The notes under the pieces were generated by a model, which was not told the DNA's origin, did no database searches, and saw nothing but the letters and a program-made list of their open reading frames with translations. A stretch of 62,123 nucleotides of DNA, the filler included, from Globobulimina sp. (lineage: Eukaryota): assembly GCA_003354225.1 (NCBI GenBank). It is 13 parts of 13 records of this genome, joined end to end, with 100 filler letters (N's around TTAATTAATTAA, not from the genome) between each part and the next. Parts side by side here need not be neighbours in the genome. Positions count along the whole stretch, not along the records: positions 9,589 to 14,279 come from PIVH01000997.1; 12 more parts are not named here. One strand, given 5' to 3'. Shown one piece after another: positions 4,695 to 15,350 of the stretch; within the stretch, counting starts at the first letter, position 1, and each line of letters starts with the position of its first letter. The position numbers and the translations under genes are program-made.

Positions 4695-4794
4695 NNNNNN
4701 NNNNNNNNNNNNNNNNNNNNNNNNNNNNNNNNNNNNNNTTAATTAATTAANNNNNNNNNNNNNNNNNNNNNNNNNNNNNNNNNNNNNNNNNNNN
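4695..4794. other. Artificial contig linker (first of 12)
   Basis: 44 N + TTAATTAATTAA (stops in all six frames) + 44 N. Repeats at 9489-9588, 14280-14379, 19070-19169, 23858-23957, 28646-28745, 33433-33532, 38218-38317, 43003-43102, 47786-47885, 52566-52665 and 57345-57444. Confidence 0.98.
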
Positions 4795-9488: not shown

Positions 9489-9639
9489 NNNNNNNNNNNN
9501 NNNNNNNNNNNNNNNNNNNNNNNNNNNNNNNNTTAATTAATTAANNNNNNNNNNNNNNNNNNNNNNNNNNNNNNNNNNNNNNNNNNNNGAGGGCAAGAAA
9601 AAAGGCGCTTTGTGCGCAACAAACCGCTGATTTACATAC

Positions 9640-10935
9640 TTTGTCATGCTGCTGATCAGCTGCATTGACCGCCGACTTGCTTTTCTTCGCCTTTTGAGGC
9701 GCCACGAACGAAACGCTGTGCTTCGTCTTCTTCTTCGGCGTCTTCGTCGCCTTCTTATTCCTCTTCGAGGTTCTTAGCGGTGACGCCTCATCACCCGCTT
9801 TCCTCCGATACCCCCGCGATTTGCTACGGGATCGATCCTTCCGTCGGTCCTTCAAATCCTTCTCCCTCGCCAATACTCGCTCTTTTGCTGCAGTCACATC
9901 CTTGAGGAACGACTGCGTTTTCATCCAAAGGCCGCCGGACAACTCTTCAAATTCCGTCCGATCGAAGGCCATATTATAATAACTGCAGAAGGTGCCGACC
10001 GCGGTGTCCATCAATAGTCGCAACCGCGTGGCAGAAGCCCGTCGCGGCACTTTCTTCAAATATTTCTCAACGTTATGCACCGCCGTGTTATAGGCGCGCA
10101 TCTTCGCCATGTCCCGTTTGGGAATCTCGACCTTCGTCGCGCTGTCATCAAATAACGCGTTCAACGCGGCGGCGGCATCCGCATCGACTGTGCCATTCGT
10201 ATTGGCCACTTTACTGAGGCGCGCATCGTCCAAATCCATGTCATCATCGTCCTCGGCCTCAACCTTCTCACTCTCGGCGCTGTCGACTGTGGTCGCGGTG
10301 ACTGATTTGCGGCGGGAACTGCTCCGCAACCGCTGGTTAATAGGTTTGTCATCGTCAGAGCCGCTGTCGTCGTCCGCGTCGTTTCCGTTGCCGGCCATGT
10401 CATCATCGTCGTCCCCGTCCTCGTTACCATCCTCGCTCATCGTTTCGACGGCTTTTGCAGCATACAACGGAGGCAGGACATACGCTTCATCGGTCCATGG
10501 CGCTGTGTGTGCTTTGTCACTGACACAGCTGGGGCAAAATATATGCGTCGCATGTCGGTCATCGGTGCCTCTTTTGGGACACTCATAATACGCCGGGATC
10601 ATACGACGACGCCCGGACGCTCCACCTTTCCTAATATCGCACGTATTGTGCTTACAAACGATGCAATGCGCATCAACAACAAATCCAGGATCGGTGATCA
10701 TGGCCAACGCCATCTCCTGCTCGACGCCGCTATGACATACTTTATCGAACAATGCCGGCTTCACGATTCTGACCGGATAACCTTTACCACGCGGCGCCAA
10801 ATTCCATTGGCCATATAGCGATCCCATCTCTTTCTTCGTCACCAATTCGCGTAGCTTCGCGGCATCGGTGGCTGTCTTCGAAGTCATCGCTTTGATCGAT
10901 GAACTAATTCTTTTCAAATGAATATATTTCTTCCT
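9640..10935 (-). CDS. Orphan GC-rich exon: Cys/His cluster, acidic linker, K/R-rich basic tail (probably nuclear)
   Basis: Open about 430 codons. Contains HCIVCKHNTC...YECPK...HIFCPSC, a D/E-rich tract and RRKDRSRSKSR/KKKTK tracts. Candidate acceptor (taacag) ends at 10936; donor gtatgt at 9639. Confidence 0.55.
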
Positions 10936-11074
10936 CTGTTACGTCTTTATGGTTAAGAGGGAAAGGAGAAAGTTTTTCGAAGTCTGATAAAATCAGCTAG
11001 CAGAAAAACCTTCTTCGCCTTGCCGCAATAACCTTGTAAATCTGCAAGTGTTCGATTGACTGCAAAAATAACAG

Positions 11075-12664
11075 AATTAACATCATCCAAATACACCACA
11101 CAAATATCAGATTTTCCATTTAATGAATCTGGAATTAAGCTTAATACCTTTCCATCACATTGGAATTATCATGAATATTTAGAAGAATATGCAAAACAAA
11201 AAGGTTTATTACAATACATTATGTTCAATCACAAAGTTATTTCATGCTCATACAACCAGTGCAAAGGGGGGGGGGGGATATTGGACAGTGCAAAAAGATA
11301 AAAATTTAGTTATCAATTCATTGAAAGTTGGTATTTGTTCTGGATTACATTCATCACCAAATCCCATTCCATCAAAATACCAATCATTTAAAGGAACATT
11401 CTTAAGTTCAAATGACATTAAAAGAATTAATCCAGAAATTGTAAAAAATAAACATTTATTGGTTGTTGGTGGTGGTGAAACTTCATCAGATTTAATATTG
11501 CATCATTTACCATTCACAAAAACAATGATTTGGTCCATTCGGAATGGACAATTTTTTTGCAACAAAAGAGTTGATTCTGAAACATTTACCTTTGGTATGA
11601 TTCAAAGTGAGTCAGTAGCGGATTTATTGGCAGTGATGCTGTTTTCTCCATCTGGTGCAGTAAATTGCAAATATACATTCAATTTAAATCCTTTTCAATA
11701 TCAATCCCATGGAATTAAAGAATGGAGAAATAATGAATTACATGATGATAATTGGAGTGCATGGAATAAAAATGCTCAAATCCTTAAATATGTTCATAAT
11801 GGAACAATCATCGCAAAGAATGATATTGATTGTATTGATGGAAAAACAGTCACATTCGCTGATGGCTCAGTTATTGATAATATTGATGTTATATTTTTTT
11901 GTGGTGGTTTTTCTCCAAATTTAGATTATTTGAAGATTGATGAATCATTAAAACAACCAGAAAATGTGTATGAATATGTATTTCCGATTTGTGAAGAATT
12001 ACAATCATCCATTGCATTCATTGGTTTAGTTCGACCGAATTTTGGTAGTATGCCTGGTTTAATTGATATTAATAGCAGATGGGTTGCAAGAATTTGGGCT
12101 CAAAAGTTATCACTCCCAAAATATGATATTATGCGTATTGAACACAGTAAAATTTTTAAAGCAAATATGATTGCATTTGGTAATGGCCAATTTAATAAAA
12201 CAGGTTATCTCGTAAATTGGTTTGTATATTGGTGGAGAATTTGCGAAAAACTTCAATTCAGTCAAGTAATGAAAACTCGTTTGAGTGCCTTATCAAAAAT
12301 GAAGTTACTTTGTAAACCAATACAAACCAGTATGTTACAAATATTTGATATTGATGATGATGCAACAATGGATGATCAACAAAAAAAACAAAAAATCAAA
12401 GAGGTGATAGATAATGATGTGGTATGGCAAAATCCTTTGTTTTGGATTTTATTTCCAATTTTACTGTTATTTCCGGATTCATTATATGAGTATTTGTATT
12501 CAAAGAAATATTATTTTCAACAAATTTCATTTTTTTATGGTTTATTTGATTGGATGTCAAAAACAAGAGTATATCAATATGTATTTCCTGAAATGCAAAT
12601 TGTATTAACACAAAATAATTCGATCAAACAAGTTATTGAATGGCATGATGCCAGAGTTGAATGA
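11075..12664 (+). pseudogene. Flavin-containing monooxygenase (FMO family), frameshifted at a G12 run and missing the N-terminal FAD-binding motif as assembled
   Basis: Frame 1: LTSSKYTTQISDFPF...FPSH..YHEYLEEYA..GLLQYIMFNHKV. After G12 (11266-11277), +1 frame: ICSGLHSSP, FKGTFLSSNDIK (degenerate FMO fingerprint), LLVVGGGETSSD (NADPH site), IDVIFFCGGF, IAFIGLVRP. The frameshift may be a homopolymer error. Confidence 0.75.
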
Positions 12665-12998
12665 GTTATTACTTATTAGCAAATTGGTTTGTACTTTTTT
12701 TTGATGAATGGTCTGAGTTTCCTTAACGTAATCCAAGAAGATTATGACTAAATGTGTGTGTATTGTTGCCTAAGTACTCTTCAATATATTCAAAATATGC
12801 ATTTTCGTTTGTTCTCATACTGAAGAAAACCAATTTATTTCTGCTAACAATACAAAAAGTGCTTAAATCATTACAATATAACACTTGATAGAAAGACATT
12901 TTAGCGTACAAATAGAATAAAGGTTGCTGTTGTGTCATATTACAAACGTTTTTTCCGATACAGTGTGTCAATTAATATTGAATATAATTATATTCATT

Positions 12999-14189
12999 TT
13001 ATTTACTGATTTGCATTGCATATCGTTTCGTCCATTCCCTTGCTGTTTGATCATGTAAATCTTTATTTGTAATCAAAAGTGTGGCAATATCGGGAACCAA
13101 TGGATCCTCTAAAAAAATCAAACAAGCATATTTGTATTGCAATTGATGCATATTATTTTGTCAAATACCTGGATTTGGTACTTGCAATAAAGCAGAAACA
13201 CTCAATAATATTTTCTCCACTGTCAATGCCGGCGAATAAGTATCTTTTAAAATATCTAAACAAATGGCACCATTTTTAGTGTTAATATTGCAATGATATA
13301 TTTTCGTTTTGAAGACAACTTTTGGTGGTTCAAAGGGATAATGTTCTCCAAAATCAATATTTAAATAAAATCTGTACCCAAAGTATGGCGTATTTTGTGG
13401 TCCATCAATAGTAGCAAACCAATGCAATAAATCATGACTGGAAACAGGACACGCTCCAATTCCTGGCGGTGGACTTAATAACAACGATTGGATTTCTTTA
13501 GCCAATCTTTTATAGCCCGGAGGTTTCTTTTCATCCTTTTTCTTCTTTTTCTGCTGTTTCTGTGCAGTATTTGAATGATTTGATGTTATAAATTCTAACA
13601 TTGGCACATCTTTTGCGTCATAGTCACCATTCGTAGTGTCACTAATATGGATCGTCTCTTCCTGCGTTGGATCATACGCTTCTTCTTCCGTCAAACAAGT
13701 GGCACGTTTTAAGTCCCATTTATTCATTGAACATATCCATTTCCCTTCAAACTCGCCCTCTGGCACTGAGGTTGGGATACGTCTCCATTTCAAGCATTTA
13801 TCGCATTGCACCCATCGCATCTCCACTGTTGCAATTGTGCTTTTATTCGGATTGATATTTTCATTTGCTTTATTACCGTTGCTTAAATTGTTTGTTTGCA
13901 ATTTCTTTTCATTGCTATCTTCATTACTTTTTTTGCAATGTTTACAATAATATGTGATCTCAGTGCTAGTCTCGTCATTTTGTAACAGATTAATCATATC
14001 TTGCTTAAATCCGGCACATTTAAAATGTGTCCAGTAAATGCATGGCTTATCATGCGAAAGGCCATCACATCCTATTGCCTCGGTGGTTGGTAATGTTGTG
14101 TCTTGACAACATGCCCATTTATACTCATTTCCATTATTATCAACATATGTTGTATCTGTATCAGGTTCTTTACTTACACTGGATGTCAT
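12999..14189 (-). CDS. PHD finger + zf-CW + ubiquitin-conjugating (UBE2D/E-type E2) fusion protein, 376 aa
   Basis: PHD: CCQD...AIGCDG..PCIYWTHFKC...YYCKHC. CW: WVQCDKCLKWR...WICSMN.W....C. UBC: RLAKEI...YPFEPPKVVFKTKIYHCNIN..GAICLDILK. A 60-nt intron at 13109-13168 yields PNPEDPLVPDIA...TAREWTKRYAMQISK*. Confidence 0.92.
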
Positions 14190-14396
14190 ATTTGTATATA
14201 AATGTTACTGAAAGAATTTTTAAAGAAAGTTTTAATATTAATTTTCGATTCGAATAAAAATGCATTTATTATTTCCTTTNNNNNNNNNNNNNNNNNNNNN
14301 NNNNNNNNNNNNNNNNNNNNNNNTTAATTAATTAANNNNNNNNNNNNNNNNNNNNNNNNNNNNNNNNNNNNNNNNNNNNTCATTAAATATATACAG

Positions 14397-15350
14397 TACA
14401 ACGAAAAGAAAACGAAATTTGTCAAGAAAATTGAAGGTAAATTAGATGGAATAAACCAAGCAATCGAGACAATGGAATTTAAGCTGGATGTAATGGCTAA
14501 ATATTACGATGAAATGGTTCGAGATCATGACAAATTCCTAGCATTTTGTTTAAAACAGGGTGATAAATATGGTGAGGAAATGGGAGAAATTAAGATTTTT
14601 TTGGAGCAAATAGGAGTTGAAATAAAAGGGAAAAAACGTGGTTTATATGAGGGTCAATCGGACGATGTAGAAAGAAAAATATTTTCCGAGGAATATGATG
14701 TTTATACAGTCCACCGAACAACGCAGGAAATAGATAATTCAGAGAGCAAAGATAAAAATGCTAGAATAGGAACATGGGTTGGAATGGGAGTCGGAGCTGT
14801 GACGGGAGGGCTCATTGCCGGCCCAGTCGGTGTCGTTATCGGTGGCTCTTTCGGTGGAGCTTTTGGAGGCTGCATTATTGGGGGTATTCTAGATAAGTTT
14901 GCAGGAAATAATGTTGATCGGTTTGAAACAAAAACGACCGTTTCTAAAAGCACAGCATCTGTGACATTGTCAAATGCAGATTATTATGATGGCGATAAGC
15001 AAAATGCAGCATTGCAACAAATCATAGCTGCGCTGGAACCGGAGATTAAAAAATGTAGAGAGAAGCTAAGCAAAGCTGTGGAAAATACAAAACAGCAAAA
15101 GATTGAAGCACAGGATTTTAAGAGCAATATATCTGGAATGCATGAGAAAATAAAGGTGTTTAAGAATGAAATCAAGGAAATTAAAAAATCGTTAAAAACA
15201 GCAAAGATTGATGATCAATTTCAGAAAAATATGGATTCGAAATGTTTAGATTTATTCGAAAAAGTTAATAAAATGGTATTGGATTTAAAATATTCATCGA
15301 ACTTGAAATCAAAATGGAAAGACCATGATGATACCAAGCAACATAAATGA
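14397..15350 (+). CDS. Coiled-coil protein with a central glycine-zipper hydrophobic segment (5' partial)
   Basis: GTWVGMGVGAVTGGLIAGPVGVVIGGSFGGAFGGCIIGG flanked by K/E-rich heptads. In-frame acceptor atatacag at 14396. Confidence 0.7.
   Translation, partial: YNEKKTKFVKKIEGKLDGINQAIETMEFKLDVMAKYYDEMVRDHDKFLAFCLKQGDKYGEEMGEIKIFLEQIGVEIKGKKRGLYEGQSDDVERKIFSEEYDVYTVHRTTQEIDNSESKDKNARIGTWVGMGVGAVTGGLIAGPVGVVIGGSFGGAFGGCIIGGILDKFAGNNVDRFETKTTVSKSTASVTLSNADYYDGDKQNAALQQIIAALEPEIKKCREKLSKAVENTKQQKIEAQDFKSNISGMHEKIKVFKNEIKEIKKSLKTAKIDDQFQKNMDSKCLDLFEKVNKMVLDLKYSSNLKSKWKDHDDTKQHK

Follow-up and report, generated by a model that had tools for sequence, protein, structure and literature searches.

The minus strand of the window, by which we mean the whole 62-kb stretch of DNA that was analysed, carries at 14189..12999 a foraminiferal gene of two exons and 376 codons, interrupted by one 60-nt GT..AG intron, whose product joins a PHD-type finger and a CW finger to a ubiquitin-conjugating (UBC) domain. 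This PHD-CW-UBC gene is single copy within the window, and the span delimited in the initial annotation, 12999-14189, proved to run exactly from its stop codon through its start codon. The ATG (14187-14189) lies in a stop-to-stop open reading frame, 13161..14204 on the minus strand, with 342 codons from the ATG in DNA of 36% G+C. An in-frame TAA is found five codons 5' of the ATG and, since no AG occurs between the two, an upstream coding exon cannot join in frame. With the intron removed, the coding sequence measures 1131 nt, that is, 376 codons and the stop. The features are as follows.

13169..14189, minus strand: exon 1, from the start ATG, codons 1-340 and the first base of codon 341; by ORF and Pfam it contains the PHD-type finger, the CW finger, the linker and UBC residues 226-340
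13935..14117, minus strand: divergent PHD-type C4HC3 finger, residues 25-85 (weak Pfam, PDB and language-model matches)
13644..13820, minus strand: zf-CW finger with a conserved acidic extension, residues 124-182 (Pfam, PDB, AlphaFold, Foldseek)
13590..13607, minus strand: VPMLEF motif of the linker, residues 195-200, common to the two closest E2 relatives
13524..13562, minus strand: Lys-rich tract, residues 210-222, with KKKKK at 214-218
13260..13295, minus strand: active-site segment from HCN to Cys310 (alignments)
13168..13109, minus strand: phase-1 intron, 60 nt, GT..AG, located 3' of the UBC PNP motif
12999..13108, minus strand: exon 2, the remainder of codon 341 and codons 342-376, encoding the last two UBC helices
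12999-13001, minus strand: stop codon, at the end of exon 2

Contigs from all four public runs searched (four studies) join position 13108 to position 13169 exactly and skip 13109-13168; in the contig alignments of 4/4 runs the ends of the skipped segment read CT..AC on the plus strand. The type of these runs is unrecorded, and the contigs are read as RNA because of this exact GT..AG skip, which is absent from the genomic window. Spliced contigs cover exon 1 over 13169-14176, and single contigs span PHD, CW and UBC together: contig X4 (1157 nt) extends over 12949-14171 without a substitution, its one gap being 6 nt long and in frame, and contig X1 (1234 nt) spans 12875-14155. The fusion gene is transcribed as one spliced mRNA carrying all three domains, so the case envisaged at the outset in which transcripts would split the domains does not hold. 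The 60-nt intron that had been predicted to complete the UBC domain is likewise borne out, by its GT..AG ends, by the contigs and by the E2 matches of exon 2: the 35 residues that this exon encodes matched 89 PDB entries, of which the best 10 of the 60 listed are UBE2E1/2/3 (E 1.7e-6 to 4.1e-6). The position of the intron is probably conserved, as suggested by two predicted proteins of the same foraminiferal clade, P0005 and P0128, whose homology ends directly after PNPG, at the intron position, as read-through would produce.

X1 represents a variant in which about 3% of the bases differ and the frame is kept. Its 31 listed coding differences from the gene comprise 23 synonymous and 8 nonsynonymous changes, giving a pN/pS of about 0.08 in a count that leaves out 5 of the 38 differing X1 letters, which were not itemised; by part, the ratio is 0.04 for PHD, 0.03 for CW and 0.08 for UBC. 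The three gaps of X1 in the coding sequence are all multiples of 3 (6, 6 and 12 nt), and the four in its 3' UTR are 1, 3, 2 and 23 nt long. Purifying selection acts on every domain of the fusion protein. These data bear directly on the idea of a locus that is chimeric through misassembly, is a pseudogene, or arose as a recent, neutral fusion devoid of function. That idea could draw on the make-up of the window (13 contigs of about 4.7 kb with artificial linkers between them), on a gene start only 90 bases from a contig end, and on the absence of an identical protein from the collections that were searched. However, the three domains lie within one uninterrupted exon, the same domain join recurs in independent spliced contigs from four studies, each domain is constrained with indels in frame, and a PHD+CW segment 62% identical to this one exists in Bolivina argentea. 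We thus regard a chimeric or functionless gene as very improbable, close to refuted.

The CW finger is the better defined of the two fingers. Pfam zf-CW (PF07496) matched residues 126-170 with an E value of 3.1e-15 and 56.4 bits, above the cut-off of 27.5. The zinc ligands are C129, C132, C153 and C165, and searches of the PDB returned the CW domains of ASHH2 (9.6e-10) and MORC3 (6.4e-8). W126, W135 and W151 align with W865, W874 and W891 of ASHH2; the first two of these form the ASHH2 pocket according to the excerpted text of PMC9043364, and W151 corresponds to the core tryptophan. Both cage tryptophans announced in the initial annotation are therefore in place. AlphaFold modelled this region with block-mean pLDDT of 80-90 over residues 121-170, and the best 25 listed Foldseek matches of the model are all CW domains, with the MORC3 CW-H3K4me3 complex (5svx) first (TM 0.73 on target, rmsd 2.4 A). 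The matches include the CW domains of MORC3, ASHH2, MORC2, ZCWPW1/2 and MORC4 at TM 0.62-0.77 on small targets, and the best E value is 2e-3, no match reaching 0.001. The H3 forms bound vary among CW domains, from H3K4me1 or me2/3 to unmodified H3 (excerpts of PMC9043364; structure-entry titles). As preferences differ in this way and the MORC2 CW is among the matches, the mark that would be read here cannot be named.

Foraminiferal proteins that combine zf-CW with ARID share 56-71% identity with the CW region and make up 8/8 matches of the CW search (examples are P0036 from Globobulimina turgida and P0270 from Nonionella stella). Across 14 sequences, 16 columns of the CW and its acidic extension (EEEAYD..EE.T) are invariant. 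In the CW-ARID proteins an ARID DNA-binding domain follows the CW; unlike the fusion protein they have no UBC, and none shows an upstream PHD. The CW module described here likely derives from theirs or is sister to it.

The N-terminal finger is more divergent. Its putative ligands are C27 C28 / C41 C50 / H55 C58 / C82 C85, all eight of which are kept in the Bolivina homologue P0127; these residues and W126 and W135 were every one found where the initial annotation had placed them. The description of the finger as an ING-like PHD fared less evenly. Residues 18-64 gave just three PDB matches, and these are indeed ING3, ING1 and ING4, at E values of 0.21-4.7 that are not significant. Both Pfam cut-offs were failed: PHD_Oberon matched residues 30-90 with E 2.4e-5 and 24.6 bits against a cut-off of 28.8 (the match of P0127 being equally weak and below cut-off), and the generic PHD profile (PF00628) gave E 0.31 and 11.5 bits against a cut-off of 24. 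The spacing is atypical, with C27 and C28 adjacent and a long C41-x8-C50 interval; in the ING1 alignment A26 occupies the usual first-Cys position of a PHD, and W25 and W53 stand where ING1 has the Tyr and the Trp of its cage. A single-sequence 110-aa PHD query against the PDB returned 10 matches at E 0.2-2.3, eight of them PHD fingers and two unrelated, none significant; the weak PDB matches of the finger include MLL1-PHD3, Pygo2 and ING1/3/4. With a two-sequence profile, 9 matches were obtained, 5 of them PHD, the best being carbonic anhydrase at E 0.087 and none significant. The AlphaFold model of residues 1-200, built on an alignment with just two informative rows, has pLDDT below 50 across 33-117. 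A language model places residues 15-95 next to PHD clusters (best score 0.90, 163/256 shared features), which we take as a lead only, and the ESM Atlas gave no usable match when queried with the whole exon-1 protein.

This divergence leaves some room for a protein whose fingers are not readers of chromatin. The C4HC3 finger could be an E3-like or E2-regulating module acting in cis, or an adaptor, the CW could recognise a partner other than a histone through an ARTK motif like that of H3, and the protein would be a kind of E2/E3 hybrid, or an E2 targeted in some other way, with substrates outside chromatin. Besides the failed PHD cut-offs and the atypical ligand spacing, such an arrangement could appeal to the RING variants that occur among C4HC3 fingers, to UBR7, a PHD protein with reported E3 activity, and to the MORC3 CW, crystallised with a viral NS1 peptide by the title of entry 6o5w. 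In contrast, the weak similarities of the finger are all to H3K4me-reading PHDs (MLL1 PHD3, Pygo2, ING1/3/4), W25 and W53 stand at cage positions, its language-model neighbours are PHD clusters, and the CW module comes from the CW-ARID family, an architecture of chromatin type. On balance we hold fingers of the non-reader kind to be unlikely.

The fingers precede a complete E2, with 225 residues N-terminal to the UBC core. Pfam UQ_con (PF00179) matched residues 228-340 of exon 1 (E 3e-36, 124.6 bits, cut-off 27; profile positions 1-113 of 140), and the remaining part of UQ_con is encoded by exon 2. Structures of UBE2D/E match the UBC at E 1e-37 to 1e-32. HCN occupies 299-301 and ICLD 309-312, so that the catalytic Cys is C310; most of the UBC domain with its active-site Cys thus resides in exon 1, as had been proposed. 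The active-site segment has one residue more than UbcH5 between HCN and Cys. In relatives C310 is nearly invariant, and both H299 and N301 are conserved. UbcH5 has C85 at the aligned position of C310 and N77 at that of N301, the residues by which active E2s differ from inactive UEV-type variants. Cys310, Asn301, D312, SPA at 319-321, F286 and K227/R228/K231 all align with UbcH5 residues.

We then placed the domain among E2s with a quick IQ-TREE of 83 unnamed rows, a short search with long branches, in which the fusion UBC groups with P0016 and P0017/18 (4-row clade, SH-aLRT 95, marked by VPMLEF), inside a 15-row foraminiferal clade (100) and, further out, a 38-row all-HCN clade (96). The latter holds the rows P0019 and P0164, which carry DPLV-GS, the human UBE2E signature, and the HPN/PE rows resembling UbcH5 fall outside it. 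The earlier assignment to the UBE2E type fits both this tree and the matches of exon 2 to UBE2E1-3; its use of HCN as a UBE2E hallmark does not stand, 17 HCN rows of the 83 lying outside the UBE2E-like clade. Exon 2 itself reads DPLVPDIAT where UBE2E1-3 read DPLVGSIAT, so that P346/D347 replace G167/S168.

UBE2E1/2/3 (UbcH6/8/9) have in common with the fusion protein the HCN, the C-terminal helices (the 10 best of 60 listed matches) and a basic N-terminal extension; they differ from it in that here the extension holds two zinc fingers, P346/D347 are present and the active-site loop is longer by one residue. Closer still are foraminiferal UBE2E-like E2s devoid of fingers, such as P0004 (Ammonia sp.) and P0017 (Nonionella stella), with 70-75% UBC identity. 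Like the fusion protein they contain a Lys-rich tract and HCN, and their active-site loop is likewise one residue longer; P0017 and P0016 also have a VPMLE(F/L) motif; with 190-246 residues and a short acidic/Lys-rich N-terminus, they are without PHD or CW. In the AlphaFold model of P0016 the UBC is mostly above pLDDT 90 and the VPMLEF region at about 50, and no ordered contact of that region with the UBC was seen. On these comparisons, the Lys-rich tract is inherited from the N-terminal extension of the foraminiferal UBE2E-like proteins. Its KKKKK run, noted from the start as NLS-like, is present at residues 214-218, and the tract looks like an NLS. The UBE2E extension is described in excerpts of PMC6254341 as an autoubiquitylation site that limits chain building, which by analogy suggests a role for the tract here.

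Taken together, these data make it rather probable that the gene encodes an intact, expressed foraminiferal class-III UBE2E-like E2 whose extension has acquired PHD-type and CW fingers and which is thereby tethered to chromatin. The fingers probably carry the E2 straight to marked chromatin. The Lys-rich tract would bring the fusion protein into the nucleus, where the CW, and probably also the PHD-type finger, would dock on the H3 N-terminal tail with methylated K4; the E1-charged UBC, on its linker of about 55 residues, would be kept beside marked nucleosomes and could pass ubiquitin to nearby lysines of histones, of chromatin proteins or of its own Lys-rich linker. Nuclear location, H3K4me binding, substrate and E3 need are all features that we infer for the fusion protein. 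As for the last, the surface that contacts E3s is kept, so transfer would most likely still depend on a RING E3.

The initial annotation had suggested that the enzyme might work without an E3. In such a scheme the fingers would bring E2~Ub to a nucleosome methylated at H3K4, and a histone lysine would receive the ubiquitin directly, with no E3 involved. Several facts speak in its favour: human UBE2E1 naturally monoubiquitylates SETDB1 E3-free, its UBC recognising KEGYES (excerpts of PMC10858943), and autoubiquitylates with or without an E3 (excerpts of PMC6254341); the fusion UBC falls in the UBE2E-like clade; and tethering raises local concentration, which is why structural biologists have fused UbcH5 to RING and histone parts (4r8p, 8uq8). 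The two residues at issue point the other way. According to the excerpted text of PMC10858943, G167/S168 of UBE2E1 enable the E3-free reaction, and UbcH5c, with P121/E122, is inactive until these are mutated to G/S; P346/D347, in the motif DPLVPDIAT, correspond to the UbcH5c state. Furthermore, the canonical E3-contact residues are conserved, which would be unexpected were E3s dispensable. They are the counterparts of the UbcH5 residues that contact RING and HECT E3s, and with these kept and G167/S168 replaced, the suggestion gains no support. A self-sufficient enzyme is in our estimate unlikely; quite unlikely, too, is the version in which PHD and CW in tandem read H3K4-methylated nucleosomes and the UBC, E3-free, attaches ubiquitin to a histone lysine of that nucleosome or of its neighbour. 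If true, such a read-and-write enzyme would couple the methyl mark directly to the ubiquitin mark in foraminifera.

Returning to the tethered, probably E3-dependent E2, we asked how widespread its architecture is. The complete three-domain protein was seen only in the window and in the run contigs, of which those in X1 and X2 include diverged copies. A second protein combining CW with UBC was absent from the matches listed in protein searches, from 80 metagenome loci and from the full-text literature searched, nor did we find a PHD/CW-UBC protein described in that literature, subscription-only papers being outside its scope; the earlier statement that no described PHD-CW-UBC protein was known agrees with these searches. 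The metagenome scan matched 588 stretches with 88 relatives, and the 80 of 88 that were examined match residues 223-341 only; residues 1-225 compared by tblastn with these 80 loci gave nothing below E 3.1. Pieces that resemble the fusion are foraminiferal only: the Bolivina argentea PHD+CW fragment P0127, whose sequence ends inside the CW, and a marine fragment with a PHD remnant and a UBC. The closest full-length relative, P0017 of Nonionella, is without fingers. UBA+UBC, ubiquitin+UBC and VWA+UBC architectures were among the protein-search matches listed. The fusion is a real, rare and lineage-restricted architecture.

Separate E3 ligases normally bring E2s to chromatin. Here, fingers of the type that read histone tails are built into the E2 itself, in a gene that is expressed and under purifying selection. 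To our knowledge the chromatin biology of foraminifera is almost unexplored, and the gene points to domain shuffling among their chromatin proteins, in which a UBE2E-like gene already present, with its intron, would have received a CW of the CW-ARID type. It also offers a compact test case of how far tethering alone directs ubiquitin transfer.

The individual parts have known counterparts in other settings. The CW of ASHH2/SDG8, MORC3 and ZCWPW1/2 shares the fold, the four Cys, the two pocket Trp and the core Trp (excerpts of PMC9043364). Its partner in those proteins is a SET methyltransferase, a GHKL ATPase or PWWP, never an E2. PHF7, a PHD protein with a RING E3 that is reported to pair with UBE2D/E, likewise couples recognition of histone tails to ubiquitin transfer; there the reader sits on the E3, whereas in the fusion protein reader-type fingers sit on the E2. 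UBE2K with its UBA, UBE2O and BIRC6 are, like the fusion protein, E2s with an accessory or targeting module of their own; the accessory modules that we know of in E2s recognise ubiquitin or substrates rather than marks on histones. The fusion gene is, finally, a natural counterpart of the hand-made fusions of UbcH5 to targeting modules used in structural and synthetic biology.

The PHD-CW-UBC gene lies on the minus strand, where 12999-14189 runs from its stop codon through its start codon. The stop-to-stop frame 13161..14204(-) comprises 347 codons and yields 342 residues when read from the ATG at 14187-14189. Since an in-frame TAA stands five codons 5' of this ATG with no AG in between, the coding region begins there. 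The exon-1 frame loses homology past ...VPNP, at a GT, and an AG 60 bases on restores it (DPLVPDIAT...) until the stop at 12999-13001; the spliced coding sequence is 1131 nt long (376 codons). A 60-nt intron completing the UBC domain, as proposed in the initial annotation, is borne out: the exon-2 frame after the AG supplies the end of the domain, and the 10 best of the 60 PDB sequences listed (89 matched) are UBE2E1-3. The window strings together 13 contigs, each about 4.7 kb long and separated from the next by linkers of 44 N + TTAATTAATTAA + 44 N, and the genuine genomic context of the gene is 9589-14279 only.

Linkers and open frames around the gene
4695-4794, 9489-9588, 14280-14379, then every ~4.79 kb: artificial linkers; genes flanking a linker are not neighbours
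11183-12664 (+): long ORF, FMO-like flavin monooxygenase (Pfam E 6.9e-25); sole neighbour on the gene's contig, convergent with it, no functional link apparent
14380-15350 (+): 340-codon open frame on the contig that follows, which is not linked to the gene's; hydrophobic stretch rich in Gly, coiled-coil-like tails rich in Lys/Glu

According to a sequencing-run index, eight runs contain the stretch. We examined four (X1, X2, X4 and X5), from four studies, whose run type is unrecorded.

Contigs of the four runs aligned to the window
X4: one 1157-nt contig, 12949 to 14171, no substitutions
X5: the span 12949 to 14171, in two overlapping contigs
X1: one 1234-nt contig, 12875 to 14155, 38 differing letters
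X2: a 770-nt contig, 16 differing letters

In all four runs a contig joins 13108 to 13169, leaving out exactly the 60-base stretch whose ends read CT..AC on the plus strand and GT..AG on the strand of the gene. As the genomic window retains this intron, mRNA is the best reading of the spliced contigs. The X4 and X1 contigs span the domains, and PHD, CW and UBC are thus carried by a single transcript. At least three sequence variants exist. The itemised X1 differences number 33, and 31 of them lie in coding sequence (23 of these synonymous, 8 nonsynonymous), giving a pN/pS against the window of 0.08 overall (Nei-Gojobori, five further X1 differences uncounted). By part, the ratio is 0.04 for PHD, 0.03 for CW and 0.08 for UBC, and 0.2-0.4, from very few counts, in two low-complexity linkers. 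Gaps measure 6, 6 and 12 nt within the coding sequence, and 1, 3, 2 and 23 nt in the 3' UTR. Spliced contigs from four studies, a pN/pS at this level and the in-frame coding gaps effectively rule out an artefact or a pseudogene.

From the X4 and X5 contigs 6 bases of a tandem GATACA duplication are absent at 14151-14156 (-), around codons 11-14, so that one Asp-Thr pair is lost; the protein thus varies in length close to its N-terminus without a change of frame. In X1, 12 bases are missing at 13908, within the low-complexity PHD-CW linker. A 173-nt X2 contig (record 3, depth 434) matches only 13171-13190 and 13282-13304, with 91 diverged bases between, and presumably represents a highly expressed paralogous E2 of that sample.

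All the residues named in the initial annotation were found in place. The zf-CW finger (residues 126-170, Pfam E 3.1e-15) can be aligned to the ASHH2 and MORC3 CW domains, with W126, W135 and W151 falling on ASHH2 W865, W874 and W891; PMC9043364 describes W865 and W874 as the two binding-pocket tryptophans and W891 as the core tryptophan, and reports CW subtypes preferring me1, me2/3 or me3 of H3K4. In the AlphaFold model this finger has a block-mean pLDDT of 80-90. The 25 best listed Foldseek matches are all CW domains, none reaching E 0.001, the top one being MORC3 CW with bound H3K4me3 (TM 0.73 on target, rmsd 2.4 A).

The PHD-type finger is the weak point of the domain assignment. In residues 30-90 Pfam finds only PHD_Oberon (E 2.4e-5, 24.6 bits, under the 28.8 cut-off), and the generic PHD profile scores E 0.31. 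Similarities of its N-terminal half to ING3/1/4 and of its C-terminal half to MLL1 PHD3 and Pygo2, together with its language-model neighbours, which are PHD clusters, are all sub-significant yet consistent. Aligned to ING1, W25 and W53 occupy the positions of the cage Tyr and Trp. The eight Cys/His ligands are kept in the Bolivina homologue, C27 and C28 are contiguous, and AlphaFold gave no usable model, the alignment holding only two informative sequences. For these reasons we call this region a probable, divergent PHD-type finger.

The UBC domain (UQ_con, residues 228-340, Pfam E 3e-36) can be aligned over its whole length to UbcH5/UBE2E structures (322 PDB sequences, E up to 0.01), keeping the catalytic C310, N301 of H-x-N, D312, S-P-A 319-321, F286 and the helix-1 basic residues. 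We built a quick tree of the window protein with 82 of 95 candidates, thirteen being removed by a crude single-domain filter. The protein groups with the metatranscriptome protein P0016 and the fingerless P0017/18 of Nonionella stella (SH-aLRT 95), inside a 15-row foraminiferal clade (100), itself inside a 38-row clade (96) that includes the rows with the UBE2E-type DPLV-GS signature. Every row of the latter has HCN, in agreement with the view that this motif typifies UBE2E, but so do 17 tree rows outside it, and HCN is therefore typical rather than diagnostic. A (D)VPMLE(F/L) motif at 13590-13607 (-), some 30 residues N-terminal to the UBC core, is kept in the two closest E2 relatives, P0016 and P0017, and absent from other foraminiferal UBE2E-like proteins; the AlphaFold model of P0016 gives no sign of its docking on the UBC and no ordered contact.

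A word-indexed search with the whole protein gave 192 matches. Among the 120 listed, the best informative ones are foraminiferal E2s of 190-246 residues (for example P0004, labelled Ammonia sp.), 68-75% identical in the UBC, with an acidic/Lys-rich N-terminus and without fingers, and five are zf-CW+ARID proteins matching the CW region alone (56-71% identity). Residues 1-200 retrieved eight near-length matches from 127 candidates, all zf-CW+ARID, and five shorter ones from 12 candidates: P0127 and four CW fragments, one also bearing ARID. Two fragments resemble the window protein. P0127 (Bolivina argentea, 184 aa) carries PHD+CW, 62% identical to residues 6-158, and terminates within CW. P0016 (244 aa, marine) begins within a PHD-like C-terminal half and lacks CW; DVPMLEFI, as in the window protein, comes next, then a tract rich in Lys and a complete UBC. 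HMMER, run exhaustively over 1.84 billion representatives, returned 16,450 matches; among the 150 listed, 20 hit in at least two stretches (16 checked by Pfam, 4 by eye), all tandem-UBC or multi-CW proteins, none combining CW or PHD with UBC. The 80 metagenome loci all match residues 223-341 only, adding nothing further. P0005 and P0128, predicted E2s of the foraminiferal clade, turn non-homologous right after PNPG, the site of the window's intron; a phase-1 intron position conserved across foraminiferal UBE2E-like genes is suggested. We infer from these comparisons, some of them with fragments, that a PHD-type finger was probably joined to the 5' end of a UBE2E-like gene that was already resident, bore the intron and belonged to the VPMLE group, and that in the lineage of the window gene and Bolivina this gene probably also took up a CW module from the family of CW-ARID proteins.

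PMC6254341 describes UBE2E proteins as class-III E2s whose autoubiquitylated N-terminal extensions restrain chain building, and a reported role in H2A-K119 ubiquitylation as disputed. The simplest and most likely reading is a chromatin-tethered E2, a wholly putative function, in which the UBE2E-type extension bears reader-type fingers: these would bind the H3 tail, and the charged UBC domain would next act on lysines nearby. Residues matching the UbcH5 positions that contact RING/HECT domains are kept (alignment). The E3-free reaction known for UBE2E1 requires G167/S168, and UbcH5c, with P121/E122 there, is inactive until changed to G/S (PMC10858943). These positions are P346/D347 in the window protein; because of this and of the kept E3-contact residues, the suggested independence from an E3 is not favoured. 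Slow direct ubiquitin transfer through tethering would still be conceivable, though improbable.

In line with the initial annotation, which knew of no described PHD-CW-UBC protein, no PHD/CW-UBC protein appeared among the listed matches of the whole-protein, residues 1-200 and HMMER searches, in the 80 metagenome loci or in the openly searchable full-text literature. The window carries a real, clean and unusual gene, which offers a directly testable model, putative in function, of reader-directed ubiquitylation, in hosts that are difficult organisms for laboratory work. E2s with accessory domains are already known, such as UBE2O and BIRC6, and UBA, ubiquitin and VWA fusions to E2 occur among the word-indexed search matches; an E2 with histone-reader-type fingers is new among these, and is seen, as far as these searches reach, in foraminifera only.
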